Below, piece by piece: positions 185 to 56,419 of a DNA stretch of 64,000 nt. Below the pieces are notes generated by a model. That model saw only the letters and a program-made list of their open reading frames with translations. It was not told the origin of the DNA and ran no database searches. Source of the stretch: Carcharhinus amblyrhynchos. Its lineage: Eukaryota. The translations under genes were made by a program, and so were the position numbers. Every line of letters begins with the position of its first letter. Position 1 is the stretch's first letter. The stretch lies in contig OZ336878.1 of assembly GCA_965287045.1 (NCBI GenBank), positions 105,834,001 through 105,898,000 on the forward strand, given 5' to 3'.

Positions 185-211
185 CTGACACCTTCCCAGC
201 AACAACAATTT
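185..211 (-). CDS. Micro-exon, 27 nt, (E)IVVAGKVS
   Basis: Acceptor is a T-run followed by aatcag|AAATTGTTGTTGCTGGGAAGGTGTCAG|gtctgt. Size and K at position 7 match the 27-nt class, but the donor is weak. Confidence 0.55.
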
Positions 212-559
212 CTGATTAAAAAAAAGGAAACAAGTAAAGTTTTACGATTCTGTAAAGAAGTGTAATTCTCTCAACTTTAACTGGAAAAAAAAGATGATCT
301 TACTCTATAGTTCCGATTTTGTTATTGCCCCGCCCACTGTTTATAATTTGAGAATGCACGTGGGTTCGGTGGTGAGAAGATGTTACATGCCTGGCTTCTC
401 TATCTCCAAATCGCACGGCAAGGCATCAGGCGTTGCAGACTCGGGGAAACGCGTATCCGCATTTTTTTTGTAATTGCGGAGGCCATCAAACTTCTAATTT
501 CGCGCAAAATGTCGTGGGTACATACAACTTGATAGCAAGAAGCTGCCGCTGCGCTTGCA

Positions 560-960
560 CATTTTCCGTATTCATTCTGGACCTCAGCATCGCTGGCTGG
601 ACAGAATTTATTGTCCATCCCTAGTTGCGTTTAGAGGGCAGTTGAGAGTCAACCATATACTATGGCTCTAGATTCACGTATAGACCAAATTAGAAAAGGA
701 CTTCTGATTTGTTTCCGTTACGTGCATTAGGGAAGCAGGTCCGTACAACATCAATGATATCATGGTCATCAGTAAAAATTAACTTCAGTTATATTTCATT
801 GAATTCAAAAACCACCAGCTGCTTCGGGACAACAGATCATTTTCTGTGTTTCTGGACAAATAGCCCAGCGATAATGCCACAAGGGTTTCGTCTTCCCTTT
901 AATCTGGAAAGGTTCGTGTAATGTTGTCCTGAGAGGGACCATGTTAACCACGGCTTCACA
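560..960 (-). mobile_element. tRNA-derived SINE, SacSINE1/DeuSINE-like (approximate ends)
   Basis: Shares the core gagggcagttgagagtcaacc with the copies at 1340 and 19975. Family name is from recall. Confidence 0.6.
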
Positions 961-1339
961 GTGCACCGTGACCATCACAGAATCTCCGAAACATGAGACA
1001 CACATTCAACTTCGCTGTAGGTTCTCAAATATGCCATGTCTCCCAGCCGTCTTCAACTACAACCTCCTGCCACACGTCTCAATTAATTGGCTAGGGCTTG
1101 GAAAGTTGGCTCCAATGCAGCATACTTGTTTCATGAGCTGCCTCACTGGGCTTGCGATAATCAACATAATTCAATTTGATGCCTAATCATTTGCACGAAC
1201 AGCAGAGTAATTTAACGTGATTTATGATTCGGATCATCTGTACATCTGCACAGAACGCTGTAAAGTCTTTTCTCTTTAAACAATACATTGGAGAACTATG
1301 TTTCCTATGAAAGTGCGGAGATTCCTATGTTCTTACATT

Positions 1340-1650
1340 ATGCTCATCCCTAGCTGAGCTTCGAGGTCAGTTGAGAGTCAACCAAATTGATATGATTATG
1401 GGGTCACATGTAGACTTGACCAAGTTCGGATAGCTGATTTTGTTCGCTAAGGGAAACGAGTGAACCAGACGGTTTTTTTCCGATGATCAATAATGGATTC
1501 CCGGTCATGGAAAGATGAGTTATTACTTTTTTTTTGTATTAAATTTAAATTCCACTACCTGCTGAGGCTGAATTTGAACTCGAATCGCCAGAACATTAAT
1601 TCAGTTTATCAAATAACAGTCCAGTGATTATATTAATAGGACATCACGTT
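1340..1650 (-). mobile_element. tRNA-derived SINE, same family as 560-960
   Basis: Core cagttgagagtcaacc...cacatgtagac. A B-box-like gagttcaaattc lies on the minus strand near 1570-1581. Confidence 0.6.
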
Positions 1651-2658
1651 TCCTATGTCATGCTGGGCTGTTGTCCCCACATAAATTATCATATTATTAT
1701 TTAGACTTTGCCCCAGAACACTTGCTTTACGGCTCTTATTGCTGTCTTCGGGGAAACTAAGCCACCATACATTAAAATCATTCATCCAAATAATTTATAT
1801 CAGTTGTCAATATTTGAGAATTCGGCACTGATCTTTCAACCACGGCATTATCAGTTTGTCAGCACAAAAAAAACATTTGTTGCTACTGTCTCTTTCTCTG
1901 TTAGCCAACCAATCAATTGCCCAACCAATATACTATCACCACATTGTGGGTTCATAACATTCTTAGATGCCTTTGCACATTTTCCCATACCATGGAAATG
2001 GAAGCACTACATTTTTGCAAATATCACTTTGCTGGCGATTTTTCTCCAGAGAATATTGCATTAGGTAAACGCGGTTTGCATTTTCCAATGTGATATTCAC
2101 TCTGGCTGTACTGTTTATGATCGTATAAGCATTTTGCTGTAACCGCATTGTAAATTGAATCCGTCAATTGCCTGTAACACGATACTATTCCATCTAGTTT
2201 AATGAATGAGGGATGTCATTCCATTTATTTCTGAATACAAATGGCATGCATAAAACAACAGCAGTGTACCGGATAAAGCATAGTTTGATGAAAACAGAAT
2301 ATGATGCAGGCTGAAGAACCTATTCGCTAACTCAAAGGGGCCTTTGTTTTTATGTTATTTGAATTTCTGTGTTCGCAATATCTGTTATGAAGATAATGAC
2401 ACATTTGCTTGATTTTTCCGTCCATTCTTCCACAGGAACCAGACTAGGCGAGGGGAGGGCAATGGGGTGGTCGACTGAAAGCCGACGGAATTTTACATGC
2501 TCTGGACGAGTGAACCGTATAATCGCGCCCCTTTTATATGTGCGTGCAATTAACTTAATGCCAAGCATTGCCGCGCTTTTTTTTTATAAACCCAATCCAT
2601 GAACAATGAAGTGGTAACAGAAAGCAAGAATCACAGAAACGTGCTAATAAGTGCTCAC

Positions 2659-2685
2659 CATTCTCGGAATGAAGTTCTTCAATTT
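2659..2685 (-). CDS. Micro-exon, 27 nt, (E)IEELHSEN
   Basis: tttaatttgtaatatag|AAATTGAAGAACTTCATTCCGAGAATG|gtgagc. Confidence 0.82.
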
Positions 2686-3639
2686 CTATATTACAAATTA
2701 AACGTAAAGTTTCAAGTAGATTTGACCAAAATTTACATTAGCAATGTGATATAATCCGATGCATCTTCGCAATAATATGCTGCAATGCCACTCTGTGTGT
2801 TCACTCACTTATATTGGTCTTGGCATATAACATGTATTTGTATGCGCTTTTGGAAATTAAAAAAAAAGTTTCGTAGGGTTCCGATTGTTCTTCGTAATAT
2901 CCGGCATCACAATACTTACTGAGGGATGATCATCCGCAAGAAGCCTAACGCTGCAGCAGCACTGCTGATATGATTTACTTCAACCGTTTCAAATAATAAT
3001 CAGCGGTGGACTTGCTAATGAACAACATTATGATGCTGTGCATTTGTTCATCAGATTTACTTCGCCCCCATATTTATTCCAAACATCAAACAATACTGTT
3101 GTCATTTGAAGAACAGAGCACATTTTGAGAAAACGAATTTTAAGCGATCGCCATTACATTCATTTTGCCGTTGGTTTCTATATTTCTCCTTTGCCGCATA
3201 TAATTTTCCTACTGTCACATAACTGAAACATTTTGAGCTTGTTTCGTAAAAGAAGGTCTGGCCCGATTAATTGTCTGAAATTGAACTTATAAAAGCATGG
3301 TAATGTTTTTCAGTGAGCTCCGAAAAAAAGGTGTGTTCACTACTGTTACACAGTTCACAAATTGGAATTTACGTGCCAAGTTTACCATACATTTATGATA
3401 GTGATTTTTCTGCTTTGATAAAATGCAACAATTTGATTTTCAACTTTGAAGTATTTTTTTTCACGGAAATGGGAAGAACTGTTACGTGGATGTAATAATT
3501 GTTTTTTTTTGCCCCCAAACAGTGGAATCTTCCAAGAGCAAATTGGCCAAGTGAACTTTTTCAAGCCTGGGTAGCAATTTATCTGACACAAGGCTTCTGA
3601 TGGCAGGAGTGGCGATTGAGTGGAGGTTTGCTGATCAGT

Positions 3640-4110
3640 CCTTTAGATGTTCTTACTTCCCCACATTCCAAACTACAGAGCATGAAAAAAACATTGATAC
3701 TTTTTTTATAATTAGACAATTTCCATCCTCCTGTCTCCCCAACAGTCATTTGTTTCGTTTTATTCTGCCCGTTTTCCATGTCTTGGAGCATGTTGCCTTT
3801 GAAAGTCACAATCCTTGTCCCTCTCGAGTACCGGCTTGAACCTAGCACCAACAACATTTTAGGTAAAGCTTTTGCATTCAAACGGATCCCAGCATACAAA
3901 AGAAAAGAGCTCATGTCGAATTACCTCCTTATCAGTCCCCTAAATCTGTACACTCATATTTCGGATCCCTCCAATAAGTAGCATCACTTCCCTCCTCTAT
4001 TCGGTCCAGGCGGCTTGTACAGCAGTATCGAGCCTACGCTCAACATTCTCTTCGGCAAGGAAGATTGTTCAAACTTCTCCATGCTTGACAGGTAAGAAAC
4101 GTTTTTCACG
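3640..4110 (-). mobile_element. Old degenerate CR1 LINE 3' fragment
   Basis: Resembles the CR1 ORF2 C-terminal and 3'UTR sequence seen in the younger copies; heavily decayed. Confidence 0.4.
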
Positions 4111-5951
4111 CCTGGAAAAATCGCTTGAACAATCGACAACTTTTTTCCTTTTGAAAGATATGCCAGATGGTATGATATTATCTTCGTCTTTGTTGTCGCG
4201 TTTGTTGCCTTATAACGCTTAGAGAAAACATATTATAGAAAAATTGCTACACGTCGCCGTAATGACATCATGAATCAATGTTTATGGTACAGAATATCCC
4301 TTTTCATCATTGTTTCTAGGAGGATGAATTCTTCGGCTATTTTGAAATGCAACAACAAGCAAATGGTGCACATGTTGTTTTTTTCTCCAACTGGTCAAGT
4401 TGGTAATTCACAGGCTTTTCCCAGAACATTAAAGGCCTTTTGTAATTCCTTCACCAATATGCCCTGCAGAATAAAAACTGTCTTGGTGTCAACTTTCGAC
4501 ATAATATTGTGCACGTGTTGCCCCAAAAATCCTATGCCATCACATTAGCCGACCAAGACGGTGTGTTACAGTGTATATCAGAATTACATCTAGGAGCTGA
4601 AGAACAATATTTAAAGTAGGCTAATTGTCAAATAAGGCAAGGATACTTTGTTGCATAAAACGCCAATAAAACTATGGAATTAATAGGAAATCAATAATTG
4701 ATAATCAATAACTGATATCTGCAGTGTTGCATTTGCTTAGGAGAAAATATGGACAGATGACACTTTGGACGGTTCAAAATAAAAGTAAAGGTTGAAATGG
4801 CAAGGATAATGATGGTCAAGGATTCACCAACCATTAGAAGTTACAAATAATATCAAGATGAATGCACCATTTGGAATAACTCACATGAGATTATGTTTTC
4901 ACCTTAATGCATCACAGAAATCGGTGCAAATAGAAGCCCAATAAGATACGTGCTGCATGAACTTTAAATAGACTAAGAATACTGTAACAGAAGTTATCTC
5001 CATATATTAAAAATAATGCTCCCGTAGCCATCCTTTCCTGGTATAATGTTATCTACGCTAATGTGAAGGGAATTGGTCGCTATGTTCAGGGGAGAGTATA
5101 ACATTCACGACACATTAAATGCATTGACGTAATCTTGGGTAGAAGTAATGTTATGTTATTCAAAATCGATTTAATGCGCATTCTGTTTTTTCACTGACTT
5201 GTATAATGTGATTTGCAATTATTACAGTTTGCCAATGAATGCATCTGTATTTTCACGGTTGCGAACGATGCATACTGCGGGAATAGAACGTTCGCCGCTG
5301 TTCAATGCAGATCACATGGAAAATTAAGCATTCATAAAGAGTATTCAGGCAACAGGGGGGGTGTCTTGAACTTTGCTGCTGTTCGTCAGCTCAGTTATTT
5401 TCTCTGAAAATATGAAGTATAATGACTTCGGTCTTCCTTTTGATGTTCTGATATGCTGCAGAGTGTAGTCCTGGACGCATTGCAGGTTGGCACGAATATC
5501 AATTGTTATGCCAAAGGATCCCATAAATTAATCGTCTTTGCTAAGCCTCACATAACTCAGTCACCTTTTGACAGTTCTGGTGTTTCTTTTCCTAAAATGC
5601 AATTTTCATTGGTGGTTGATTTATTATCGTTTCTAACGATTAAAAAAAAACTACATATGTTGTCATTATTTTAAAGAAGACTTGAAATTCGACAACCTTA
5701 CATTATCTGGCTCACATTTGCCGTCAGAATTATACGAAATAAACTCGCCCCAAAGGCGTTGATTGTTCAATTTAATTTCGATCGAAGGAGCTGCGTGCCG
5801 ATCAGGGCAGCAACAGCTATTTCTCCTGTTTCTAAATTGCAAGGAGTTCAATATAATATTCCCTTGGTGAATGATTATGTAAATTGCTTTCATCTGCTTA
5901 ATCACTTTTAGCAAAGATGTGCAGTCAACACACACAATCTCGAAATGTTAC

Positions 5952-5978
5952 CTTTATCCTTTCTTCGTAACCGTTCCT
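5952..5978 (-). CDS. Micro-exon, 27 nt, (E)ERLRRKDK
   Basis: cttttatcttgttttcgcag|AGGAACGGTTACGAAGAAAGGATAAAG|gtaaca. 20/27 nt identical to exon 42610-42636. Confidence 0.9.
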
Positions 5979-6764
5979 CTGCGAAAACAAGATAAAAGTC
6001 ACAAGAACAGAACACTTGTTCCTCCTCATCGTAAAATCTAAGTACTCAAATTAATCTATTTCCAATATCACCATACTTGCGCAACAATAAACAAAGAGAA
6101 TATCTTTGTATGTTCTGGACACAGGCGTGGCAATTCCTGCAATTTTTATGCACACTGAAGTATGTAGGCTGGATAAATAGCAGTAAGCAATACCATTTCA
6201 TTAAACAAGCCAACTTAGCAGCATTGGCATAAGCTGGGTAATAAAAAAATGCCATGCATGATTAATCGTCTGCCCTAAGCCATTCAAAAGTGATTCATTT
6301 TGGATAGTTTAGGCGATTAGTTTCGTGAATATATCATTTCCATTTAATGTTGGTTTCAATTCATTTGTTAAGACTTTAAAAATATCACCTATATGTCGGA
6401 GTTCCTGTGAATCGATCACTTGAAATTCGTCATTTTTAAGTTAATTTAACTGTCTCATATTCAGTACGATGCATACATTTCAAACAAGAGTGCGGTACAA
6501 TTTTGATCTGGTCGTACAGGGTGGAGACCGAATTTGAACAGTTACTAGTTCAATACCACGAACTGATTACTCGTGACTATTATATTTTAAAATAAGTATC
6601 CAATTGATTGGCCTAGGTAGAATGTTATTCCACATTTTAACCAAATTTAATGGAACGTTTTCATAGTGTTATCCTGTCGTTACAGACCGTAACTTTTAGT
6701 TGGTTGCGGATTTGCATAACGAAAATACAACGAGAATGTTCTGAAAACTGCGTGGGATGCGTGG

Positions 6765-6823
6765 GGTAATTTCACAATCATTGCACGCATCTGAGGGATG
6801 CGTGCAATAATTGTGAAATTATC
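6765..6823. repeat. Near-perfect inverted repeat: 25-bp arms, 5-nt loop
   Basis: taatttcacaatcattgcacgcatc-tgagg-gatgcgtgcaataattgtgaaatta. One mismatch, which is a U.G wobble in minus-strand RNA. Confidence 0.9.
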
Positions 6824-6929
6824 TATTGTGACATACATCCGTTTTGGACGCAAACTCAGGTCAACCTTCTGTGTTTAATAACCCCACAAATACAATATAA
6901 CCGCTTCTCGCTCTCTCAAAGTAAAACAT

Positions 6930-8460
6930 TAGGAATTGCAACGAAATAATTAAAGCAGCGATGTGGGGCTAGGTGATGTGTTGTAGGTGCTTGTTCTGGG
7001 AGGTCGGGGACCCGATTATTGTTCCTAAAGTCTCATCGGTAGCTGGTTGTCTGAGGATTATGGCTTAGTTTTGGTGAGCTGGCGTCTGAGCTTTAAAGAA
7101 TGCAACACATCCCGAGATTCATCTGGATGCGTTGATTCCAGAGGCAATCAAAAACCCAAAGGTCAATTACATCAAGTCCAGTCACTGGTCAGGGACAGAA
7201 TGATGTTGCTGAAAGCAAAGAAGCTTGCGGATTCCAGGAAATATTGCTGAAAGAGCCTTGAGCTGTTCAAACAGTTTTTAGATCATTGTTATTTATGTGG
7301 TTGAGAGAGGGGTCTGTATGGAGAACGAACAATCTAACCAACGTACGGTTGTTTGGGGAGCCATTCAACGGATGGGGTGAGGGTATGGCGTCGGGAGCGT
7401 AATGTGGATGCAATTGGAGACAGTGTAGTCAGGAGAATACACACTGTTCTTTGTAGAGATGATCGTGGAGTCCCGAAACTTCAATTGAAAAACTTGTGCT
7501 GTGGTTCAAAACATCTCATCGGCACTGCAAAGGAAGTTGCAGCGGGAAAGGAAAGATTCAGTCGTCATGAGCCAGATGCGTATGAACAATATAGGTAGAA
7601 AAAAGTAGTAGTTTTTGCTGAGGGTATATGAGCAACTAACAAAAAAAAAAGGAAAAAAGAGGTCCTTATCTCTGGATTACTATTTCAACCAAGAACTAAT
7701 TGACACATGATCAAGAAGATCAAAGACGTAAATGCATGGCTCAAGTATCGGTGCAAGAGAAGTGGGTTCAAATTCATGGGGCATTGGCACCAGTACTGGG
7801 GAACAAGTGAGATGCTCTGATGGGATGTGTTCCACTTGAGTCATGCTGGATCTGAGCTCTGGTGAAATTCATAACAACAGTTGTAGATGGGGCTTGAAAC
7901 TAAATAGTGGGTGGGAAGGGGGCTGCAACTGCTTTCGAATTTTTGAAGAAAAATATATTAAAGGGGTAACATCCCAGCGAAGACTATTAAAGTCTGCATC
8001 AGGCATAATAGTTCAGCGTGTTTGGATTGAGTTACGAATCTAACTCCAGGCAAAGCAGACACGAGGGCGACTTAGAAAAGAGGGATTTTCAGTGCAGCAC
8101 TGAGGGTGTTGTATTTGAATCCACAGAGTATACAAAATAAGATATATGTACTTGTAGCATAGATTCAAATTGGCGGTAATGTCGTTGTGGGCATCACAGT
8201 GAGGTACTGACAAGTAGTCAGCGCTGGGAGTTAAATATCCTAGTTTACACGTACTATCAAAATGATACGGAGGTGCGCATGGGAGCGGGGTTGCCCTGTT
8301 TATAAAAGGAGAGACGAGAACCTGAGAACACAGCCTCACAATGGAAGGAAAACCATGTTTGAAGGGTGATGGGAAAGATTCTCTTCAGCCTTTAATCTAT
8401 GGAATTATTGCCACAGAAAAAAAATGTAGAAGCCAAGACCGTGAGTGAGTTTATGTCGAG
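6930..8460 (+). mobile_element. Degenerate CR1 LINE: ORF1 (SGNH-esterase-like), start of ORF2 endonuclease and a 3' scrap
   Basis: Peptide IGDSVVRRIHTVLCRDDR (GDS motif). A downstream FMGHWHQYW-like segment and an ITVRY...GSGVALFI endonuclease-like segment; many stops. Confidence 0.7.
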
Positions 8461-8653
8461 AAGACTTGTCTCTCTCCCTTTCTCTCCCTCCCTACATATA
8501 TACCATCAACTGCAGACATTTTTTCAGCTTTTCTCTCCTATATAGCTGTTGTACAGATTATTAACTAATATTAGGCCCTCTGTTTCAAGACATCCATTGT
8601 ATGCAAATATCAGCATTTATTTTCGGTGAAGTTAGGAGCGTCAGGGCGTCTGA

Positions 8654-11600
8654 TAGAACATAGAACACAACAGCACAAACAGGCCCTTCAGCCCACAAGT
8701 TGTGCTGATCACATCGATACCTACCAAGCCATAGAACTATCTGTAACTCCCAATCCCATTAAATCTCATATACTCATCCAGAAGTTTTTTTTAAAGACCC
8801 CAGCGACATCGCCTCTACCACCACCGATGGCAGCCGAGTCCACTCACTCACCACCCTCTGAGTGAAAAACTTTCCCCTAACATCTCCTCTGTATTTGCTT
8901 CCCAGCACCTTAAACCTGAGTCTTCTCGTAGCGACCATTTCAGCGCTGGGAAATAGCCTTCGAGAATCCACCCTATCTATTCTTCTCAACATTTTATCAA
9001 CCTTGCCTCTCAACCTTCATCTCTCCAGGGAGAAGAGACCTAGCTCCCTCACCCTGCCTTCATAAGACATGCCTCCCAATCCAGGCAACATCCTTGTAAA
9101 TCTCCTCTGCACCCTCTCAGTAGTTTCCACATTCTTCGTGCAGTGAGGCGACCTGAACTGAGAACAGTACTCCAAGTGGGGTCTGACAGGGGTCTTATAA
9201 AGTTGCAGCATTACCTCCCGCCTCCTAAACTCAATCCCTCGATTAATGAAGGCCAGTACACCATACACCTTCTTGACCACATCCTCCACCTGCGAGGCCG
9301 ATTTAAGAGTCCTACGGACTGGGACCCCAAGACCTTTCTGCTCCTCAACACTGCTAAAACTCCTACCCTTGATATTGTACTCCTTCATCCCATTGGCCCT
9401 GCCAAAATGGACCACTACACATATATCCGCGTTGAAGTCCATCTGACACTTCTCCGCTCAGTCTTGCATCCTATCCATGTCACGCTGCAACTTCTGACAT
9501 CCCTCCAGGCTATCCACAACACCACCAACCTTCGTATCGTCGGCGAACTTACTAACCCATCCCTCCACTTCCTCATCCAGGTCATTTATGAAAATGACAA
9601 ACAGCAAGGGTCCTAGAACAGATCCCTAGGGCACTCCACTGGTGACCGACCTCCATGCAGAAAAAGACCCATCCACATCCGCTCTCTGCCTTCTGCAGGC
9701 AAGCCAGTTCTGGATCCACAATGCCAAAGACCCTTGGATACGATACCCACTCACCTTCTCAAGAAATCTTGCATGGGGGACCTTATCAAACGCCTTGCTG
9801 AAGTCCATGCAAACCACATCCACCACTCTTCCTTTGTCAATGTGTTCAGTCACATATTCAAAGAAGTCAGCTAGGCTCGTAAGGCACGACCTGCCCTTGA
9901 CAAAGCCGTCCTGACTATTTCTGATCATTCTAAACTTCTCTAAATGCTCATAAATCTCTTCCCTCAGAATCCTCTCCATCAACTTCCCAACAACTGAGGT
10001 CAGACTCACCAGTCTGTAATTTCCCAGGCTATCCCTGATCCCTTTCTTGAAAATAGGAACCACATCCGCAATCCTCCAATCCTCTGGAGCCTCTCCCGCC
10101 TCCATCGATGATGCAAAGATCATCACCAGGGGTTCTGCAATCACTTCCCTTACCTCCCACAGTAACCTGGGTTACAACCCATCCAGTCCCGGCAACTTAT
10201 CTATCTTGATAGAATTTAAAAGTTCCAACGCATCGTCTTTCTTAACGTCCACATACTCAATCTTTTCAGTCTGCCACAAACCTGTAGTACTACCTCCCAG
10301 ATCATTTTCCATCGTGAATACCGAGGCAAAGTACTCATGAAGCACCTCAGCCATTTCTTCCAGTTCCACACAGCCTTTTTCCCCTTCACCTTTTATAGGT
10401 CCTATCTCTTAATTCTCATCCTTTTACTCTTCACATATTTGTGGAAAGCCTTGGTATTCTCCTTAATCTTACCCAACAAGGCCTTCTCATGAGCCCTTCT
10501 GGCTCTCCTAATTTCCTTTTTAAGCTCCTTTCTACAAGCCTGACACTCTTCTAGATCCTTAACATCTGCTAGCTCTCTGAACCTTTTGTATGCCTTTCTT
10601 TCCTTTCTGACTAGGTTCATCACAACCTTCGTGCACCATGGTTCCTGCGATCTAGCAAAACCTCCTTGTCTCATTGGGACGTTGTCGTGCAGAGCTCCAG
10701 TCAAACATTCTTGAAAATCCGCCACCACCCTTCAGTACTTTTCCCCAAGAACACCTCCTTCCAGTTTAGTCGTCCAATTATCTGCCTCATGTCAGCATAT
10801 TTCCCCTTACTCTAGATAAACACCTTCTTAGCCTGCCTGATCCGATCTCGTTCCAATGCTATCGTAAAGGAGATAGAATTAAGATCTCCATCCCCAAGAT
10901 GCTCTCTCACCGAGGGATTCGACACCTGCCCTGGTTCATCAGCCAGCACCAGGTGAAGTAAAGCCTCTCCTCTCGTAGGATTATCCAAGTGCTGTGTCAG
11001 GAAACCCTCCTGAACACACCTAACAAGCTCTTCCCCATCCAAACGCCTTACCCTAGGGATATTCGAGTCGATGTCTGGGAAATTAAAGTCTCCCATCACG
11101 GCAACTCTGTTATGACTACATTTCTCTAGGATCTGTTTCCCTATCTGCACCTCAACTTCGCTGTCATTATTGGGCGGCCTATAGAAAACACCCAGCAAAG
11201 TTATCGACCCTTTGCTGTTCCTAACTTCCACCCACAGAGACTCTGTAGACAGTCCGCCCACGGCATCCACCTTCTCTACAGCCATGGCACTGTCCCTGAT
11301 CAACAGTGCCACTCCACCAACTCTTTTGCCTCCCTCCCTGTCCTTCCTGAAACATCTAAATCACGGCACTTGAAGTACCCAGTCCTGTCCCTGAGACATC
11401 CAAGTCTCTGTAATGGCCACCACATCACATTCCCAAGCAGCAATCCACGCCCCAAGCTCATCTATTCTATTCACTACACTCCTGGCGTTAAAATAGACAC
11501 ACCTCAGACCCTCGGTCTGGGCGCTTCCCTTCTCCATCATCCGTCTAACCTCCTTCTCATACTGTCTACAATCCGTCTCTACTTGGGAGCTACCCTCCTC

Positions 11601-12750
11601 GCTCTCAGTCACTTCATCTCTATTCCTTCCCCTCAACCTTTCTAGTTTAAAATCCCCCCAGTAGCCCTACCCAATCTTCCCGCCAAGATATTGGCCCTCC
11701 TTGGATCCAAGTGCCACCCGTTTTTACTGTACAGGTCACACCTGCCACTAAAGAGGACCCAATGATCCAGGAACCGGAATCCCTGCCCCCTGCTCCAGTC
11801 CCTCAGCGACGCATTCACCCTCCACATCATTCCGTTCCTGCTCTCACTCTCCCGCGGCGCAGGCAGCAATCATGAGATTACTAACTTCACGTTCCTCTTT
11901 CTCAGCTGTCTACCTAATTCTCTATAATCCCTTTTCATGACCCCCTCCTTCCTCCTGCCTATGACAGCGGTACCTATTTGTACCACAACCTCAGGCTCCT
12001 CACCCTCCACTTTCAGATGTCTGGGACGCATCCAGAGACATCCCGGATCCCAGCTCCAGGGAGGCAAACCACCATCTGCGACTCCCGTCTGCGTCCGCAA
12101 AAACACCTGTCTGACCCCCTCACTATGGAGTCCCCTATTAACACTGCCTTAATGCTTTTTTTTTCTTACTTTTTTGAAGTACTGGATTGGGCTTAGCTCC
12201 AGAGGCCTGGCCACCGCTGCCTCCCCCAGGTGAGCTGTTCCCCACCCCCCCCAGCAGTACTCAGACAGGAGTACTTATTTTGAAGGGGGGCATCCAACGG
12301 CGTGCTCTTCATCACATGAGCTTTCCCCTTCCTAACAGTTACCCACTTGCCTTCCTCCCGTTGCCGCACTGTGACCACTTGCAGGCAGCTCCTGTCAATT
12401 GTCTCCTCATTCTCTCTAATGAGACGAAGGTCCTTGAGCTGCAGTTCCAGTTCCTTAACCCGGTCCCTTAGGGACTGCAGCTCCACATACCGAGCACAGA
12501 TATGGACGTCTGGGAGACCAGGATCCTCCAGGACCTCCCACATACTGCATTGGCAATAACATACTGGCCTCGCACTCACCGTTCCAATTTATAGTAAGGG
12601 GAAATAAGAACTACCCAAGCCGCTTTGCAAACTCCTTCCAGTTTCCGGTATAAAATTTAAAAAAATAGAAAAGTTAGCTTTAAAAATCACTCTAGCATAC
12701 CCTCAAGCTCTCCTTTCACAAATCGCTGCCTCTCTTCTGTGCTCCCAAGG
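8654..12750 (-). mobile_element. Near full-length CR1 LINE with frameshifts and stops (ORF1 plus ORF2 APE-RT)
   Basis: ORF1: CCQCSMWE zinc finger, coiled coil, esterase segment (11642-12579). ORF2: YFNARSV..VAITETW and MGDFNFPDI endonuclease motifs; RT motifs GNYRLVSLTSVVGK, DFSKAFDKVPH, SVTSGVP and RPHLEYC. The 3' tail reads tagaacatagaaca on + at ~8654. Confidence 0.95.
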
Positions 12751-13141
12751 AACAACGATAATATAAAGTTGATACTCAGTTAATATTCTATACGCTAGTC
12801 AGGTAATTGGGATAGAGAATCTTTGCGACGGCATCACCGCTGCGACCAATTTGTGCATCGAAATAGCCTTATATTTTTCACAGTTCTCTAACAGAAATAA
12901 CAGTGGGCATGTATTAGTTAGCGATCGCTTTGTGAAAATTTCTGCAAAAGCCTGTCTTTACATAATCTATCACTCCTTAAAAATCGTTTTTTGTTTTTTT
13001 CCCAATATGTTGTCTACCTAATTCAAATATGGGTGCAATAAAAAGCTCTATCAAATTTATTTGGTGTAAATATGTCTTGATATGTTCACCAAGTAATTTA
13101 CGCACGAACAACTTGATTTTTCAAGATTATTTTCTTCTTAC

Positions 13142-42597: not shown

Positions 42598-42609
42598 AAT
42601 TAAATTCAC

Positions 42610-43509: not shown

Positions 43510-43545
43510 CAACATGTTGTATGTCTTCCTTCATTTTTTCTAGTT
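43510..43545 (-). CDS. Micro-exon, 36 nt, (E)LEKMKEDIQHV
   Basis: ttttgactttattttgcag|AACTAGAAAAAATGAAGGAAGACATACAACATGTTG|gtgagg. Confidence 0.9.
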
Positions 43546-46710: not shown

Positions 46711-46849
46711 CAGATCATTTGAGATTTCGTTTTTGGAGCGTGAATTTCACGAATTTTACTATCCAGGATTTGAAGGGACAGGATGCGCAATAGGATGCGG
46801 ACCCAAAGGAAACAATTTATTTCACTCAGAATTCTAATGTCTCACAATA

Positions 46850-47760
46850 ATTAGCGCCCAATTTGTCATGTTCTTGTCAAGTCAAACAGGCATCTATTGG
46901 ATGCATTTCAGATAAGGCTTGACATAAGCACGTCGAACTCCGATACGGCTGTCCACGCATGTTAGTCATTGCCAAGAAACTTGACAGAACATGCCGCAAA
47001 TGGACTGAAGGCAATTTTCAATAATGTTCGATTTGTTTTCCATATGTGAACTCTTATTGCAACACTGTTGTATGCTCAAAGCAGAAGACGAGCATCACTG
47101 AGATCTGGTAAGAGATAACAAGGCAAGATCTGAACGAGTGAAGCAGCCAGGGAATGTGGCAATTCGAAGTGATGCATGCATTGAAAGTGAAAACATAGAC
47201 TGATTGCAACCAAACATAACGCAAAGGAATATGATTGCAACGCCCAAGGCAAGTTCTTCTTTTCATTGCTTCACAGAATGTCCCCATAGTTGGCGAGACC
47301 AACCTTAGGTTACTCAGCCAAAATGTCATGGGGAAAGTGCCGGCGAGCAGCTGTCTTGAACTGCTGCACTCTGAGTGTTGTAGGTGCAAACAAGGTGTTG
47401 TTACAAAGATTTGCAGTGCCGATTGACAACAATGAGATTGCAGTGGATCTTTAAGTCACAGTGCCTTGCAGCTTGGATGAAGATTAGCCCTAAAATAAGT
47501 TTCAAAGATTTTCTGTGTTGCTTAGATCAAAATTTGGTTCGTACTGTTGAAGATGCATTTAAGAGTTACAGCATATCTTCACTAAGGCAACACTCCGACT
47601 ATTGACCATAGGAGGACGGATTGTATGCAGATAATATTTAAAATGGTGGTTGAAGGCTCAGACAAGCAGAATTCTTTATCACATTTGGTGCTGATGTTCT
47701 AGCCATTGTTGGCATCCCATTAATTTGGACAATAACAACACTCCTCGCTTTCCAAGTTTG
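46850..47760 (-). mobile_element. Old LINE ORF2 fragment
   Basis: Patchy RT-like decayed sequence; no intact frame. Confidence 0.3.
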
Positions 47761-48090
47761 TGTCTTGTTGCTACAGGCTGAATATTAGAAAGCAAGGACG
47801 GAGTCCCTCGCTGCAAAATTTCCAGTTCTTGTTTAATGCGCATTTGTTATATGATTGCCCATTTTGCTCAGCCATAAATATAACCAATTGTGCATTATTT
47901 AACTATAAGACCTAAAAGAAAATGTAATATGCAGCAAGTTATGTCTTTCTATTTCTGCCAACGTCAGTTTGCTGTTTTCAACGTAAATGGTATTGGTAAA
48001 TCGTGAAATCTACATGACAGAACATGCATTCATCGAACCGATCTGCAGTTAATAATTGAAATACTGGAAAACGTATCTCGGTAAAATTAC

Positions 48091-48117
48091 CTGTATCCTT
48101 TATAAGAAGTTGTCTCA
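48091..48117 (-). CDS. Micro-exon, 27 nt, (M/V)RQLLIKDT
   Basis: ttttcttgtcttctcgaacag|TGAGACAACTTCTTATAAAGGATACAG|gtaatt. Confidence 0.87.
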
Positions 48118-49624
48118 CTGTTCGAGAAGACAAGAAAATAATTATTAAACCGCAACATATACATCAGACTTTTAGAAACAAAACACGTTGATCTAATCAA
48201 TGCGAAGGAACATTTGGCTTCCACTCATATGCTTAGCTTTCAGATAAACACTTGAGACTGGTATTTTAAGTGTAATTTTCGGGCATATTGGTTGAGATGC
48301 CATTAAATAAAATGAATGTTTGTAAATAGAAAAAAAAAGTATCTCTTAATGTCGAAGATCTTCGAAATGCATTAATATTTCCATTCTATTACCGCATTTA
48401 CAATAGCATTCAAACATTGTTCAATTCAAATAGTGGGTCAATGCATCAGTCTCCACATCGCTTTATAATCGTATTCATAATTACAAGTGTGAAATATCAA
48501 GCTCAAGTATTAGCTACCAGCATGGTAAAATAGCAACGATATTTTCTTTCTCTGTCCCGAGCTGCGGACATGATATCTTCGTCATCAATAGGACCGCCTC
48601 CGTGAGTATCCATACTACCGGGTATTCGTCCTTTGACTCACAGTGTATGGTATGAAAACCCTTACTCATGCTTCAGTTGCCTCTAGTTTTGTCCTTCAAA
48701 CATGGTCTGACTAGAAATTTGGGCTACCGCAAAAGAAAAGGTGCTTACCACAATTTGATTCACAACAGATACTTTTAACAGTGCAATCAGGTATTCACTG
48801 GTCGACATTGAGTATTACCAAGATGCTTATTTGTCCCTCTGCCGCCAGTTTCAACAGCCTTTCGAATTCACATATATTCGGAACGCCGTTCAGCCTCGTA
48901 CGAGTTTCAAACTTTATAGATCAGCAGTTCTACTCAATTCCTAACTAAATTCCCTTCCGGAGATTTTCACACGTGTTTTCTAAGTCCAGTTTCGCTGAAT
49001 TTAGGGACCCTTCTCTCACATACTCTTTACTAATTTTTAGGCCAGTTAATTTCTTTTCCAAAAATTTAATTTCCTGTACCAATGCCGGGTTTATTAAACA
49101 TTCTAACTTGAAGTGCATTGCACTATTTTAAATTAGAAATGTGAATTAGCAATGCAAGTTCTCATTGTATTTGTGGACTTTCATTTATCTGCTGATCGTA
49201 TTATTTCAAATTGAATGTTCATTTTAGTGCAAGAAAGCTTGTGTGGTTGTTCCTCGAAAGAATGATAATACTAGCCTTGGAAAATGTAACAACAACACAT
49301 TCAACTACAGAAATGAACGAATACTTTTACCCAAGAAAGCACAGCAAAATGTATCAGCAGGAAATGATGCAGTGAGCAATATTAGAGAACAGGCAGAATA
49401 AAGTGCATAATGTTAGTGGAGACCAGTAAAATGTACAGTAACAATATTCATAATCGATAGAGGGGTGTGAGGGAACGGCGAGCTTTAAGGAAATATGCCA
49501 AGTTGCAGATACATAAAGAAACGCTCGGAAAATAATAGTGTTTTGCCGGATAAATACGTTAGAATTCATCAGATTACAGCAGAATAAAATGAAAGGCAGA
49601 GGTGAGGATACACACCAAGGTAAA

Positions 49625-49790
49625 GGAAAAATACTGCAGCTGCTGGACTCTGAAATAGGAAATCAGAAAATTCTCGGAAACTCAAAAGGTTTGACAGCAT
49701 TGTGGAGAGAGAGAGAGGGTAGTGCCCATGTTTCGAAAAAGAACGGCACGGACAAATACCGGGCAGTTGAAAGGAGACAGCCAAGCAGTT
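49625..49790 (-). mobile_element. Penelope-like terminal fragment
   Basis: Reverse complement resembles the 46640-46720 terminus (ctctc...atgctgtcaaacct...gagttt...tccagcagctgcagtattt). Confidence 0.45.
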
Positions 49791-52700
49791 CAGGAATTCA
49801 ATAAATGAAGCCAGCTCACAGTTGAGCATTCCTCTCTGAACACTGATTAAACCGGACGATTAAAAATATATTTTTTTAAAAATACGTGTTTTCTTTGGTG
49901 TCTTCCATGGGACCAGAAAATATCAGGAACATGTGCAGGAACAGATTAAATTACAGTAAAGTGACAAGATTAGATATTATTGTAATGTGATTGATGTCTA
50001 GATACACACGCAAAATGCCAACAATCTCCTATACCAGCTATTTCCCCTCTATCAACACCCGAACCCAACCCACTCCCAGCTGCAGTGGTGTAACGAGCAG
50101 TTTCGTTGTAAAACGTTAAATTTGTTGACTTAAGTGGACCCACTGAGCAACTCATATTTGGAAAATAAAGCTCAAAGCGCGCTTCATTCGCTTTTGGATA
50201 GGGAAACTAAATATTTGAGGCCTGACTGAGTTCCCAGCTTTTCCATGCATTCTGTATGTAATTAGCCACCGTCCGCGGAGCACTGACATCTGCCTTGGCA
50301 TACTCTTTAACCCTTGTGGAGAAGGGGTGAGTGAGAATCATCATTGCGTACATTCTAAATGACTGCTTTGGAAGATATCAACGCAAAATGATATGAAAAC
50401 CTGAACAGAACCCTTACACAGAGCTCACAAGTCGAAAGCATCGTTGCCCTCGAGCAAAGCAGTGCAAAGAGGATGAACACTTTACAATGTGCCCTGAGAT
50501 GGTGTATTGAGAAAATGAAGTGTGTGGAGTTGCATTATCAATGGACTTCCTCCAATGATTTTTTTGCAGGTCTGGGGATATATAACACCAACTTCAAGCC
50601 GAAAGCACAAGATAAAATTAAATATTTGAATGTACCCGATACGTAAACTAAGGAATTAGTTTGGCCTCTGTATCACACGCATGAGGAATCTAAATATGTG
50701 ATCATCATTAGGTTTATGAGCAGGTATTTCTCTACTAGCCATAATATACTATAACATAGTTTTTTGACCGCTCATTGGGGGAAAAAAGAAACAACATGCC
50801 TTTGGTCGGAGCACAGAGGACACTTATTTCAATGATATCCATTCATTAACAGCTCTGCTCTGAAACAAAAAAAAACACCGTATTCGAACCTCACCACCCG
50901 ACATAGAGAGTTAATTAAGGAAACGCTTGCAACCTGGCCCAAATATGAAAACCAGGAAAGAAAACCCACCAGTGCGGATGTTGCGAAACAATATCAATTA
51001 TGCACACTTGTCGAAGGCCGCTGCCTCCGGAAGGAAGTTCAGGAGCAATTTACAAACCAGCGGAAATATCTACCTAATCCTGAAAAAATGCATATAGAAT
51101 GTGGGATCAACAGGGAATTCTTCAGAACGTCGAAAATGACAAGATTGTTAGCTCAGAAAATTTATCTGTGATATGTTTTAATACTGCATTTTTTTAATGT
51201 TAGGCAATTTATCGTCCCATTTAACGTCCATTAATTGCCACAGCCATCTTGTGAAACAACAAATTAACATTTCTGCAATAAGAAGTCCATAACCTGCAGG
51301 TAAAAAATTGTGCTATCAATATCTTGGACATTGCAAGTTTTGGAGTAAAGTGGACATCCACTTCTTATGCAGTTACGTAAATAACCGACCTAAGTCTTCC
51401 ACTCAAGCCACACCAAATAAATAGTATTGCTGGAGAACCAGATTGGTTTCTTGAAAATCTGAGCCACTGGCGCCGCAATCTTCACAGTTCTATAAACACA
51501 GAACGAATGTCACGATCAAATTAATCTTTTTTCATTCTTTGGGTCACATTCCCAATTCTTTGAGCACCACTGACGCAGTAAGGCTGTGGATTTTTTTTTA
51601 GAAGAATTTGGTTTACTTGATAGAGCTGAAAATTTAAGTTGCCATTTTGAGAATGGGATGAAGTGACATTTCTCGATTGTTCTAAGCATGCTGAAACCTT
51701 TGATGAACACAATGGCTTGGGACATGGCTGGCAATGCCAATGTGCTTTTTATTATAATATTTCACAAACGTTATTTGGATGTTTAATTCGAAATGCTAAT
51801 GAAATGTACACCTGCTTCAAAATAAGCATACATCACTACAGACTGATGGGGCAGAATTCTGCAGCTTACATACCAGATATTAGGATATCGTAATTGTGCT
51901 TTGCCAATGACTGTGCCCTTTTGTTACACTGTGAGAATGAACTTCATAAATTGTTTTTCAAAGCAGAAAACGAGTGTTGTTGTGTTTTTTTTGATCAACA
52001 GAAGTAATATATTGCATCAAACAGCAAGATATGACTACAACTCACGAACTGTAGTGACCGCATATTCAGGTTACTGACAAATTCTTCTATCTAAGATCGA
52101 AAGGTCTTGCAACATATGCACAAGTTTTGACAGAGGACACAAAGCCTTAGGTCAGGACCTTACATTACGACAAAGGAAATTAATTATCTGCCATAAAACA
52201 AGACAGACTATGCGCAAGATCATCATAATACTTGTTTTTGTGTGTGAGTCATGGACTTGCAGAAATATCGACGCATTGAATTGCTGTCACATGCTGTTCC
52301 ACTCGGCTAACAAAGGGTATTGAATGAAAAGAGAAAGTGTGTTGTCATTTCATCTGGAATATGGGTATGAGATGTGGCCCTAGCCATTTAGCATGGTTGT
52401 GGAGGCTGTCCATGAAAGCATGGTTGCATGGCAAAGAACCAGGAATCAATATTTTCCGTTATGTCGATTGGTTGAAGTACTCTGAGAAAAGAGAAAGTTG
52501 ACATAAAATTTGCTGGAAGCATTTGAAATCAGCATTTTAATTGCTGATTTTTTTTTTGAATTAAAACATTCATTATCAGAGACATGGACAGCCAGAATGG
52601 AAATGCAGTGAAGATGATAAAGAATATACTCTCCGAAGGCGTCATACATTCGGAATACAATCTTGAAGTTGTCTTTAGAGATAAGTCATCCTCAAGGATC

Positions 52701-54852
52701 AAGCTCATTTTAATGTCGAATCAAAGAAAATATGGCATGTACGCAACACATTCAAACAACCAATTGGGAAGACATTTCAAATAATAGCGCAGCTTGGATC
52801 CAGTAACAAATAAAATGGCAGCAAAGAAAATTCCCAGGTTAAAAGACTGTGCAGTCGGAACAAAGTAGGGAATTTATCCTGATCTGCAGCGCACAATAAT
52901 ATCCGTACCTATAATAAGCTCAAAAGACACAATATTATCCAGAAAACTAGAATGCACAGGGAGGAAAAGGTCAACTTAAATTATGATGGAAACAGAACTT
53001 GGAGTCGTAAAACAAGGAACCTGCTTTACATTTGTATAGGATTATATTTTCACCTCAACTGTAGCATTTGCGTGACTTCTGGGCACCAACGTTTAACATC
53101 GGTGCCATGGAAAGAATGCAGAAAAGTTCTACAGGAAAATCCAGGATCCAGGAATCAACATTTTTCAATTGTGTGCTTTAGTTATATAAGTCATGTCTGT
53201 TTTAGTGGGAAAAGAGATGTTTGGGATCTAAATTGCTGGAGACATTCGAAATTAACACGCTCTTTGAAGAGTGGAGAAACAGGAGTTGTCCCCATCCATG
53301 AAATGATAAAAAACACAGCAGACTGTGATTTTGAGCAAACTGCGGTTGGTGAGGGAGGTGGGACGGTGATAGAAGCAACATGTCAAACACGTGGTAATCA
53401 TCGTGGATAATTGATATAGAGTGAGATGGAGTCATGCTAAGTTGAGGAATTCTCGAGTGACTTTATTTTCTAAAAATAAGAAGTGTACAGGGTAAAAGAG
53501 GGAAGTGCAGGCAAGCAGTAAGTGCATTGATATTTCAGATCTCGAGCCCTACGGCATAAGCCACAGACATCGTTCTGTTTAACGAGCAGTCTTTAATTCC
53601 CTGCGTTTTTTTTTGCAACACGTCCTATTCATTTTGAGATGGGAACTGAGTTAGAAATTTTGCGTTCCTGAGTCAAATGTTTTAATGGGTTTTGGTTGTA
53701 AGGTTGAAAGAAACTTTATGCCTACCTCGAAGAAGAACGGGATAGTAACAAATCATTTGCATTTCGTATCAGACAATGGTTACAGCACAGATGGATGCAA
53801 CTGATTTCCCTTGTTCATGTTGGCTCTCGGCAACAAAGTTTCAGCTAGTTCCACTCCAATGAAGTCATGCAAAATCCACTTTCATCGATCGGATCATTCA
53901 ATGGAGGTTTCTCCCCCCCACCCCATGTTTAACTATAACATTGAAGAGGAACATGTACAAACGGACAGCCACAATTACTATCAAAAACGAATAAATTGAG
54001 ACAGGATGTGAATTATTTATGGATGGGAGACAAAAGGAGGTGAATCAACGTGCATGGTTTTCAGATGGATGTTTGCAGGCCATTTGGTTTGTCCCAAAAT
54101 TAAAGCAGAATGCTGTAAGCAGACTTGGAGTCTCCATATTGTAACATTAAATACGTATTCGCTACAAGCATTCATTCGAAATTCCCTAAAATATCATTAC
54201 GTTCCCAAATTGGAGGCAGTGTGCAATATCACCGAATTCACGGTTCCTGAATGCAAAAAAAATTCGGATCTAATATTTTGAAGTAATGTTGTTTTTTGAG
54301 GCATATTATTGAGTTCGGTTGAAGTAGAACCTAAGCAATATTGTTGTTGATGTCTGTTGTAAAAAAAAGTCAGTTTTTTTTATCTAAATAACTCCAATCT
54401 ATGCTGTTCAGTTGCTGACATAGCACTGCAACACAACATACCTCACCTCCACGGCAGAGTCAAGTTACTTCTCGTAATATATATCGAGGCGGACCTGACA
54501 AAAACTCAATTATCTTGTGTTCTACTTTATTCAAAGTAAATAATACACCGTGGTGGTTCTGCGCGGAAAAACGGCAAGGATACTGCAACTTCATTTCTGA
54601 TACATCCATAAAATAAAGTCATACTAACGAGGGTAATCAGTAGTTTTCAAATAAATTAGAAAATGTATATATCAACCTGAGGCATGGGTAGAAACTGATC
54701 TTATAAGAATTTACAACTTTTGTAACGTTAGCTTAGAAATACCAGTAAAGGATCTTAGGCGACAAAAAAACCCGAATAAATTCATATATCCTGTTGTCGT
54801 ACTTCTAATGACCCAGAAAAAGACCCAGACTCAGTACAACAGTGCTTGATTT

Positions 54853-54884
54853 TATTATTATTATTATTATTATTTATTATTATT
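54853..54884. repeat. (TTA)n microsatellite
   Basis: Imperfect run of ttattatta... Confidence 0.9.
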
Positions 54885-56392
54885 TCTGCAAAGTTCCCCG
54901 ATTCCTTAACGGCCCAAATCATTTGTCGATTGCAAGTGGGGCGTAGTTTGTCGAGAAAACGAACGTGGGAAATAAAATTAAACTATGTTGAAATATAGGT
55001 TAGTTGGCTTGACATTATTCGTCAAAATAATGCTCGAGTACTTTCTTTGGGAAGCGCAATATTTTTGTACGTCAGCCAGGCAGATTGATGCGATTTTACG
55101 GGTATTTTGCAAATTCAGTACGGTTTCTTTTTTTTTGAGAATGTAACAAGTATTACAGGTTGTCGACGCCTGTAGAGATGATATGTTTTGATTCAAAAGT
55201 AAGTTATTTTGTAAGGATCAATGTTTGATGTGCATTATGCATTCGCATGAAGTCGAGGACAATGTTTTAACATCAACTGAAGACATGGAACAGACAGAAT
55301 GTAGGCCATGCGGAGAAAAATTATATTTTGAAATTTGTCAGACTGCGCCTCGAGGGGATTTTATTTAGATCTCAGAGCTCAGATATTTACATTCACCAAC
55401 AACAACTTAAATTACAAACCTAGAGCAACGTATTTTATTTTGGATCACAGGAAAAGTTTTTACAAGTTCAGCCAGTTCGGAGAATCCAAACGCAGAATAA
55501 GATAGAAACGGTGTAGTTGAGCGGGTAAGATGTGACACAGCAAAAGAGAGAGGTTCGTAACAGAAGTACAATTATACAATGTAAGCCGACAGCATGGAGG
55601 ATGTAAGTGCTGACTTTCAGACAGACCTGACTGCACACATGCGCGCCAAGAGTAAAGCGAGTCTTCAGCGACAGCTAACGATTAGGAAGGTAAACTGAAC
55701 GCTTGTTTTCACTGAAATTATACATGAAACATGAAATATTGCAAATGTGATGTAATTGCAGATGCTTTTGTCCAGTCCACACATAGCGAAGTAAAATAAA
55801 TTTGTTTTGCAGATTTTCGATGGGGTCATGGGATAAAAGGTTCATCATATTTTGGAGGATGAAAAGTTTCTTATGTTTGGAAGGGAAATAAGGAATGCTT
55901 TTACTTAAACTTTGAAAATTGCCAAAGATCTTTTTTTCAGAATCGAGGAAACTTTTGTTTTCAACGAATTTTGGAATTAACTAAACAACGCCACGTGCCG
56001 ATGGTCCGTTCAGATTAGTTAGAGTAGCGCAGAGTCTATTTTGTTTCGTTTAGGGATTTTTCCATAATTTCTGACCCCCTTCCCCCTCTTCCGTATTGCA
56101 GTTTTATCGTTCAGTATGCACAAGGTTTGGAATATTTCTCAATGCACAGAAGTCAGGAAATCATTGGACGCGGGAAGTGATTATGAATGTGAAAATCAGG
56201 CAGACGCTAAGTCAACTTCGAAATACTATAGGAACAGAGTTCCAGTTTCATATTCTTGTTCACCCTTTTGTAACGTGTACAGAAAATCGAGGAATATTCT
56301 TTTTTTTTCTTTTGGTGCAGATATTCCTCAATTTCATACCACAGATCGTATAATTTTATATAAATAATTCCCAAATAGTCGCGATTGCTTAC

Positions 56393-56419
56393 TGGTATCT
56401 TGAAGTGGTTTTTTGAATT
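56393..56419 (-). CDS. Micro-exon, 27 nt, (x)FKKPLQDT
   Basis: ttttgattatttaattcag|AATTCAAAAAACCACTTCAAGATACCA|gtaagc. Confidence 0.68.

Follow-up and report, generated by a model that had tools for sequence, protein, structure and literature searches.

The very small exons of the window, the 64,000-nucleotide stretch of shark DNA that was analysed, are probably for the most part constitutive coding exons of a long coiled-coil family of cartilaginous fishes that was grown by exon duplication. A divergent B30.2 (PRY-SPRY) domain closes the members of the family identified so far. The rod would have lengthened as phase 1-1 exons were duplicated again and again, in tandem and in segments, and these duplications would have survived because the exons are symmetric; excerpts of PMC3632108 describe tandem duplication as one source of symmetric exons. 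When all exons are joined, an ordinary donor G meets an exon start of AA or AG, which would account for the prevailing Glu junction. Minor isoforms probably lack some single exons, a loss that is tolerated as a by-product, and such minor skipping may apply to the window locus as well. The skippability of the exons seems to have come along with growth by duplication and is not a proven length-tuning system. We infer that the window locus is expressed, and its product may act as a cytoplasmic rod or spacer.

Exons of the window

Splice-site scans recovered 16 exons of 27 or 36 nt on the minus strand, all open in phase 1-1, which span 185-56419; the limits given by the sequence-only reading coincide with the outer edges of the outermost exons. 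The features are as follows.

56393..56419, minus strand: 27-nt exon, phase 1-1, ends in A; low profile score (2.2), supported by the collinear alignment
48091..48117, minus strand: 27-nt exon, starts with TG; 7 of 8 residues match a repeat of catshark protein P0168
43510..43545, minus strand: 36-nt exon
42610..42636, minus strand: 27-nt exon
41177..41212, minus strand: 36-nt exon
40594..40608, minus strand: candidate 15-nt exon of moderate confidence, ends in C, outside the count of 16; 21 nt if a second donor at 40588 is used
40402..40419, minus strand: candidate 18-nt exon of moderate confidence, outside the count of 16
39137..39163, minus strand: 27-nt exon
35986..36021, minus strand: 36-nt exon
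33627..33653, minus strand: 27-nt exon; agrees with P0168 at 7 of 8 residues
33109..33135, minus strand: 27-nt exon
25290..25325, minus strand: 36-nt exon, low charge, lower confidence; splice-site scans, below the profile cut-offs
19232..19258, minus strand: 27-nt exon
17628..17663, minus strand: 36-nt exon
13142..13177, minus strand: 36-nt exon
5952..5978, minus strand: 27-nt exon
2659..2685, minus strand: 27-nt exon, weak acceptor
185..211, minus strand: 27-nt exon of low charge and lower confidence, with a strong acceptor; splice-site scans, below the profile cut-offs
1..64000, minus strand: the window in full, which lies inside a longer microexon array; introns with SINE/LINE-like repeats

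The exons exceed chance: across 264 kb, the minus strand had 23 strong acceptor-donor pairs of 27 nt and 21 of 36 nt, whereas the plus strand had 0 and 1, respectively. A profile trained on the minus-strand calls with leave-one-out, the donor term of which was blind to the last base of the exon, gave 129 calls on the minus strand and 8 on the plus strand over ~0.92 Mb. The lengths of 27 and 36 nt proposed from the sequence are the main classes, but they are not the only ones, as the 15/21-nt and 18-nt candidates in the window show; calls of 18, 21, 24, 30 and 39 nt exist elsewhere. Joined to the exon that follows, the one at 56393..56419 yields a Met codon, and the same is seen in the catshark proteins. 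The DNA runs X3 and X4 are collinear with 30001-49000 of the window and differ from it by ~2% and 4-5%, respectively, and the single difference that related DNA runs show in the exon at 33627..33653 (position 33645) is synonymous. Two runs guessed to be RNA gave, among the matches listed against 30001-49000, pieces and joints at repeats only, and are not informative on splicing.

Junction codons, heptad register and exon order

It had been claimed from the sequence that no exon ends in T, that most start with AA or AG, and that any junction codon is consequently a sense codon, mostly Glu. All of this holds for the 16 window exons: none ends in T (G in 15, A in one), and 14 start with AA (11) or AG (3), the remaining two with TG and AC. 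The 120 forward junctions are all sense, with 97 Glu, 13 Lys, 8 Asp, 1 Met and 1 Asn. However, a terminal T is already barred by the full-length transcript alone, because about 88% of the exons (87.6%) start with AA, AG or GA. With an assumed background of 5-10% for T at an exon end, a model in which every exon is included expects 0.8-1.8 T-ending exons among 129, where one was observed, and gives P = 0.80-0.90 for finding none among 16. The missing terminal T is no evidence of selection for skipping and matches a constitutive-only model. Weak T-ending candidates do occur, for example at 63500-63532 (score 5.8, inside the plus-strand control range); if they are real, skipping the exon that follows one would produce a stop.

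The exon peptides follow a heptad pattern, with core hydrophobic residues at positions 1, 4 and 8 of the peptides from 36-nt exons (0.93, 0.82 and 0.68 of 56) and at position 3 of those from 27-nt exons (0.85 of 47). The arithmetic by which loss of a 36+27 pair preserves the register is correct, as 10 of the 13 possible two-exon skips in the window would remove 21 aa, whereas none of the 14 single-exon skips would give a multiple of 21 nt. A preference for multiples of 21 nt, raised along with it, was not seen in the data at hand. Internal in-frame deletions were found in three of eight database isoform sequences from two short relatives, so skipping is not rare in these two, and their lengths of 9, 6 and 9 aa include no heptad multiple. 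Recent duplication units have 37 aa, and of the seven spacings between modules of the catshark rod, one is divisible by 7.

The window rod is homologous to, and collinear with, an elasmobranch B30.2/SPRY coiled-coil family of the P0168 and P0001 type. P0168 is a catshark coiled-coil/SPRY protein model of 945 aa. A chain of 17 window exons aligned with its residues 372-532 at 69 of 147 identities (47%) and a score of 290, compared to 152.6 ± 14.5 for shuffled exon orders, none of which reached the real score in 300 shuffles. When 22 downstream exons were added to the chain, the score was 546 versus 288.8 ± 22.8 for the shuffled order. Matching by exon peptide gave no orthologue of the window exons among the best 14 of 153 proteins, and a library search with P0001 returned mostly generic B30.2 proteins. 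A complex prediction for two copies of P0168 residues 372-532 gave 0.30 with the mark at 0.32; no verdict was drawn and the result was not used. P0168 stands alone in its 90% cluster. This single sequence is weak evidence for constitutive splicing, because microexon isoforms may be missed in the RefSeq models of relatives.

These observations bear on the reading that the array is a combinatorial system, in which regulated skipping would produce rods of many lengths, as in schistosome micro-exon genes (MEGs). The uniformly sense junctions of the window, the in-frame deletions in the relatives and the many potential two-exon skips of 21 aa are in its favor, and excerpts of PMC4350168 describe MEGs as drawing variation from such an architecture. 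In-frame skips are indeed possible and isoforms of relatives do show single deletions, so that part of the original proposal stands. Against regulated tuning are the no-stop property, which is expected without any skipping, the isoform deletions, none of which is a multiple of 7 aa, the exon order kept relative to the catshark paralogue P0168 with its one-sequence cluster, and the variation documented for chicken BG genes, which in excerpts of PMC5938342 consists of intron read-through and between-gene differences in exon number. We consider this reading unlikely.

Extent of the array and gene boundaries

The microexon array lies on one strand over ~2.4 Mb, between ~C9:106.32 Mb and a single B30.2/SPRY exon of its clade (C9:103,955,186-690), and holds ~400 microexons by extrapolation. 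All 25 pattern matches across it were on the same strand. Six of 14 stretches sampled between 105.3 and 103.95 Mb were without a minus-strand call, and a later pattern search found exons in those intervals. Paralogous microexon arrays are present on another contig (C16). Genomic units of 12-19 kb, ~68-85% identical including their introns, carry repeated exon sets, and the duplicated exons diverge less than their ungapped intron flanks. They differ most at the third codon position (0.24 vs 0.20 and 0.17; 0.39 vs 0.18 and 0.29), and this excess is present in the downstream duplicates. In the upstream duplicates, 26 synonymous and 58 non-synonymous single differences were counted, suggesting that purifying selection is weak there.

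Microexons and B30.2 exons are linked at the level of the family. Among paralogues of the neighbouring B30.2 exon, the best seven are C9:103.955 Mb and six C16 sites; the C9 site and five of the six C16 sites lie downstream of same-strand microexon matches, and the sixth has its upstream matches in common with another site. The nearest downstream B30.2 exon of the clade is at C9:103.955 Mb, 1.88 Mb from the window. A search of the first 260 kb downstream and of C9:105.34-105.44 Mb gave no B30.2 exon of the family, so the window's own protein may be without this domain.

A search for the 5' end or first coding exon of the gene did not identify it. A CpG-rich stretch at C9:105.686-105.689 Mb was rejected as a promoter, being a broken LTR-retroelement-like insertion, and a homologue search with a candidate 174-nt phase 1-1 exon at C9:105,372,205-378 gave none. 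In P0168, P0004 and P0165, Pfam detected SPRY, while PRY stayed below the cut-off; RING, B-box and Ig were not detected in any of the three. Short RING and B-box motifs had no match in C9:106.318-106.398 Mb; since neither domain was found in the relatives or this upstream stretch, a classical TRIM identity was rejected. An Ig-bearing butyrophilin was likewise rejected, with Ig-V found neither by Pfam in the relatives nor by motif scan on the coding strand across the array stretches examined and 80 kb upstream. Genome-wide PRY and V-set searches were dominated by other families, and the V-set result (150 of 1794 candidates) is uninformative here. Eight hydrophobic transmembrane candidates in C9:105.36-106.318 Mb were not convincing, and the N-termini of the relatives appear hydrophilic by eye. 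A type II C-type lectin receptor stalk was rejected, as the motif scan was negative and no Lectin_C was found from C9:102.82 Mb to the contig end among 59 matches (150 of 211 candidates scored).

Where the gene ends can be read in several ways. It is narrowly probable that the window is part of a paralogue in tandem, or of a partial duplicate, without B30.2, a pure coiled coil like the BG-derived zipper protein, and that the array comprises several genes. The window and downstream chain parallels P0168 almost to its B30.2 domain (residues 372-725 of 775), and the ~78 kb beyond the chain hold few convincing exons and lack B30.2; N-terminal residues of P0168 find their match in exons at C9:104.199 and 104.195 Mb, which lie 1.6 Mb downstream of the window, and exons similar to the A-ending one occur at C9:105,765,148, 105,427,990 and 103,972,439. 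However, open exons with good splice sites are also present at 104.209, 104.222 and 104.226 Mb, immediately upstream of where the start of P0168 matches, the strand is the same throughout, the C16 arrays likewise take ~0.4-0.7 Mb per B30.2 exon, and neither a terminal exon nor a promoter was identified. This reading is compatible with mostly constitutive splicing and differs from it in gene boundaries only. That C9:106.32-103.955 Mb forms one ~2.4-Mb transcription unit of ~400 microexons, with internal promoters and in-frame skipping that yields rods of varied length, is rather doubtful as a whole; its single-gene part is doubtful, and a single gene that also has regulated combinatorial tuning is very unlikely. 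One gene would encode a ~4,000-aa rod (~0.6 micrometre as a coiled coil) with a single terminal B30.2 domain, and its ~400 exons would rival the record, as titin has 363. That the window exons are untranscribed duplicates in decay is highly improbable. Codon-position bias is weak in the most recent duplicates and an own B30.2 exon was not found nearby, but more than 100 exons have intact splice sites and frames, the heptad core positions are strongly retained, the match to the catshark model keeps both its identity and its order, and the downstream duplicates show the third-position excess.

Comparison with known systems

By analogy, the shark array resembles the tails of chicken BG proteins, for which excerpts of PMC4046983 and PMC5938342 give, per gene, 13-36 exons with lengths of 21 or 24 nt and heptad repeats. 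From the same excerpts, BG and zipper protein genes have in common with it a long heptad tail of tiny symmetric exons, an exon number that varies from gene to gene, and multigene clusters. On the other hand, each BG exon encodes one heptad, whereas those of the shark array are mainly 27 or 36 nt; BG genes have a signal peptide, Ig-V and a transmembrane exon and no B30.2, whereas in the shark stretches examined no Ig exon and no convincing transmembrane exon was found, and B30.2 is terminal in family members; and the shark array has about 10 times as many exons. Butyrophilins (BTN/BTNL) have heptad repeats followed by a B30.2 domain in excerpts of PMC4046983, as does the shark family. BTNs carry few heptads, Ig domains and a transmembrane segment, whereas the shark family models have a rod of ~200-770 aa and no Ig. 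Enterophilin-1 combines a long heptad rod with a C-terminal B30.2 domain (leucine zipper plus B30.2), a domain layout similar to that of the shark family. Its SNX1/EGFR role is cited in excerpts of PMC13749957. In schistosome MEGs, very small symmetric exons permit in-frame alternative splicing, according to excerpts of PMC4350168, and the shark array too has most of its coding region in small symmetric exons. MEG products are secreted or membrane-anchored, with signal peptides and demonstrated transcript variation, whereas such features are hypothetical for the shark array, which has no homology to MEGs.

Skippability by itself is ordinary, as it is shared by any gene grown from symmetric exons. 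The scale stands out, with several hundred 27- and 36-nt exons over 2.4 Mb. Together with the arrays of the second contig, each with a clade-specific B30.2 end, the array marks an expanded cartilaginous-fish gene family, and a literature search, with most subscription journals outside its scope, found no paper describing this elasmobranch coiled-coil/B30.2 family. As a single gene, the array could serve as a test bed for the ordered splicing of hundreds of microexons and for the evolution of BG/butyrophilin-type tails. The elasmobranch RefSeq entries named 'TRIM39-like' or 'zinc-binding protein A33-like' (XP_038672306-310, XP_069775384-390 and P0168) belong to the same family. These automatic names are based on SPRY only, with RING and B-box not detected by Pfam, and they mislabel the family; its annotation is probably also incomplete, because standard gene finders fail on microexons. 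The RefSeq relatives have 353-945 aa, far below the coding capacity of the array, and the B30.2 domains of the catshark models are 63-66% identical to the two flanking C9 B30.2 exons.

Exons of the window and their order

Splice-site scans identified 16 exons of 27 or 36 nt in the window, all on the minus strand and open in phase 1-1; for two of them (25290 and 185) the basis was the splice sites only. Over 264 kb, the minus strand had 23 strong acceptor-donor pairs of 27 nt and 21 of 36 nt, and the plus strand of the same 264 kb gave none of 27 nt and one of 36 nt. The features used below are as follows (C9 is the contig containing the window, at 105,834,001-105,898,000).

Window 56393-56419 to 185-211, minus strand: 16 exons of 27 or 36 nt
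Window near 40.4-40.6 kb: smaller exon candidates, one of 15 or 21 nt and one of 18 nt
C9:106,383,658-106,384,175, just upstream of the array: B30.2 exon ending the neighbouring gene (Pfam SPRY, E 2.6e-12)

The 16 exons and the 18-nt candidate were joined into a chain of 167 aa, which aligned with residues 372-532 of P0168, a catshark model of the coiled-coil/B30.2 family, with 69 of 147 identities and a score of 290. Shuffling the exon order gave 152.6 ± 14.5, and none of 300 shuffles reached 290. With 22 downstream exons added, the alignment extended to residue 725 and scored 546, versus 288.8 ± 22.8 when shuffled. Exon 56393 ends in A and exon 48091 starts with TG; the Met codon formed at their junction was also found in the catshark repeats. 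Together, the collinear alignment and the shared junction support the prediction that the exons are real and read in a conserved order. The N-terminal residues of P0168 matched exons near C9:104.20 Mb, so the window is a duplicate block or a paralogue of that region. Open exons carry on upstream of that match, and the array may comprise one gene or several.

A local intronic duplication adjoins exon 35986 (window 35308-35836 and 37204-37739, about 1.9 kb apart, 85-91% identical); its second copy appears to have no exon.

Terminal bases and exon skipping

The sequence-only reading had proposed that the exons can be skipped in frame, in any combination, without creating a stop. This holds in the window, where all 120 forward junction codons are sense and 97 encode Glu. 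Every stop codon begins with T, and hence only the terminal base of an exon decides whether a junction is a stop; this base is G in 15 window exons and A in one. A scoring scheme blind to the terminal base gave 129 exon calls over about 0.92 Mb (plus-strand control, 8), ending in G (115), C (8), A (5) or T (1). Since 87.6% of these calls start with AA, AG or GA, a T-ending exon would usually produce a stop even in the ordinary full-length chain. With an assumed background T frequency of 5-10%, a constitutive-only model expected 0.8-1.8 T-ending exons among the 129 (one observed) and gave P = 0.80-0.90 for none among the 16 window exons, against 0.19-0.44 under a naive model, the exons being duplicates of one another and thus non-independent in these statistics. 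The lack of a terminal T is no excess needing explanation.

Isoforms were compared among database models of short family members. One of three catshark sequences lacked an internal 9 aa; among five from Narcine, one lacked 6 aa and another 9 aa, and the remaining differences were N-terminal. Judging from deletion length alone, these would be skipped cassette exons. Because none of the three deletions is a multiple of 7 aa, they would support occasional single-exon rather than pair skipping, and a preference for multiples of 21 nt is not apparent in them. The long relative P0168 is the sole member of its cluster, which is weak evidence for constitutive splicing, as microexon isoforms are easily missed. 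For combinatorial length tuning, then, the single in-frame deletions in relatives speak in favor, but the no-stop property is explained without skipping and is probably incidental; a regulated system appears unlikely.

Heptad register and duplication

In the peptides of 36-nt exons the core hydrophobic residues occupy positions 1, 4 and 8, and in those of 27-nt exons position 3, so a 36+27 pair makes three heptads and, as had been suggested, keeps the register. The 36-27 alternation is the most frequent pattern (62 of the adjacent pairs), which counts in favor of a 21-nt rule. Recent segmental duplicates comprise 37 aa both upstream (12+9+6+10) and downstream (9+9+12+7), apart from a single 30-aa unit, and one of seven distinct module spacings in P0168 is a multiple of 7. 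Of the 13 steps from one 36-nt exon to the next in the assembled exon chain, 6 shift the register; some of these shifts could stem from missed exons, and there is one in-register run of six. The rod appears to be built in segments and to tolerate breaks in register, and there is therefore no ground to expect a 21-nt rule.

Four to five segmental duplicates of recent origin, 12-19 kb long, lie at C9:105.93-106.00 Mb (L014-L021). Each carries exons of 36, 27, 18 and 30 nt, and their 27-nt exons have an unusual weak donor in common. Copy number likely varies between individuals here.

Extent of the array and its family

The array reaches from about C9:106.32 Mb down to 103.96 Mb, far past the window. 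A 27-nt exon pattern had 25 matches at C9:103.97-106.11 Mb, all on the minus strand. Eight fall in the contiguous sequence analysed, and extrapolation (129 calls × 25/8) gives roughly 400 exons in total. Titin has 363 exons. A 174-nt phase 1-1 candidate at C9:105,372,205-378 (minus strand; L075:2205-2378) has a very strong acceptor and encodes several tyrosines as well as an internal Met; homologue and Pfam searches gave no match, and it may represent either a first coding exon or a signalling-like insertion. An array gap at C9:105.685-105.691 Mb (L039-L040) contains the remains of a broken insertion that resembles an LTR retroelement, including gag-like and pol-like pieces; it has partial relatives elsewhere in the region. 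Two near-identical, inverted reverse-transcriptase element copies at C9:105.736-105.740 Mb (L010; open frames of 647 and 533 aa) looked Penelope-like by eye.

Catshark, basking shark and electric ray supply the nearest protein relatives of the locus, which marks the genome as shark-like. The two flanking C9 B30.2 exons retrieved catshark P0001 (451 aa, 66%) and P0168 (945 aa, 63%). Pfam found SPRY in P0168 and its relatives P0004 and P0165, and no RING, B-box or Ig domain. The seven best paralogues of the neighboring B30.2 exon, at C9:103.955 Mb and six C16 sites, lie downstream of microexon matches on the same strand. No further B30.2 exon of this clade was listed between C9:103.955 and 106.38 Mb among the 150 of about 335 candidates scored in each search, and six queries from the family turned up none in the downstream stretches read.

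The analysis directly showed the array with its duplications, the heptad pattern of its exons and the link to the family. Most likely, a symmetric-exon cassette went through many rounds of duplication, one at a time or as blocks, and the coiled-coil rod ahead of a B30.2 interaction domain grew longer. Tandem duplication is a described origin of symmetric exons (PMC3632108), and schistosome micro-exon genes are likewise composed largely of very small symmetric exons (PMC4350168). The layout of a long heptad rod and a C-terminal B30.2 domain is that of enterophilin. For enterophilin-1, PMC13749957 cites a role involving SNX1/EGFR. Length variation would be mainly genomic, between genes and species, a likeness to the chicken BG genes (PMC5938342, PMC4046983). 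Expression, cytoplasmic location, dimerisation and function of the array product are at best inferred. Literature searches, in a library covering few subscription journals, found no description of this shark microexon/B30.2 family. What makes the locus interesting is chiefly how large it is and how incompletely its family is annotated.

Several more family microexon arrays, in both orientations and of about 0.4-0.7 Mb, lie at G000:C16:60.4-66.4 Mb, each followed by a clade-specific B30.2 exon. On the minus strand at C9:103,490,006-039, one more family-type 27-nt exon lies downstream of the B30.2 exon at 103.955 Mb and suggests a further array member. In a bony fish, the catfish model P0054 (Hemibagrus guttatus KAK3511214.1) combines a rod of some 900 aa with a B30.2 domain; the likeness to the shark family noted here is one of domain layout. 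Numerous PRY/B30.2 exons, along with a V-set Ig exon cluster, occur at C9:96-112.5 Mb and 83.8-85.6 Mb, and single-exon C-type lectin domains stand in tandem at C9:102.75-102.82 Mb; this part of C9 is rich in immune genes.
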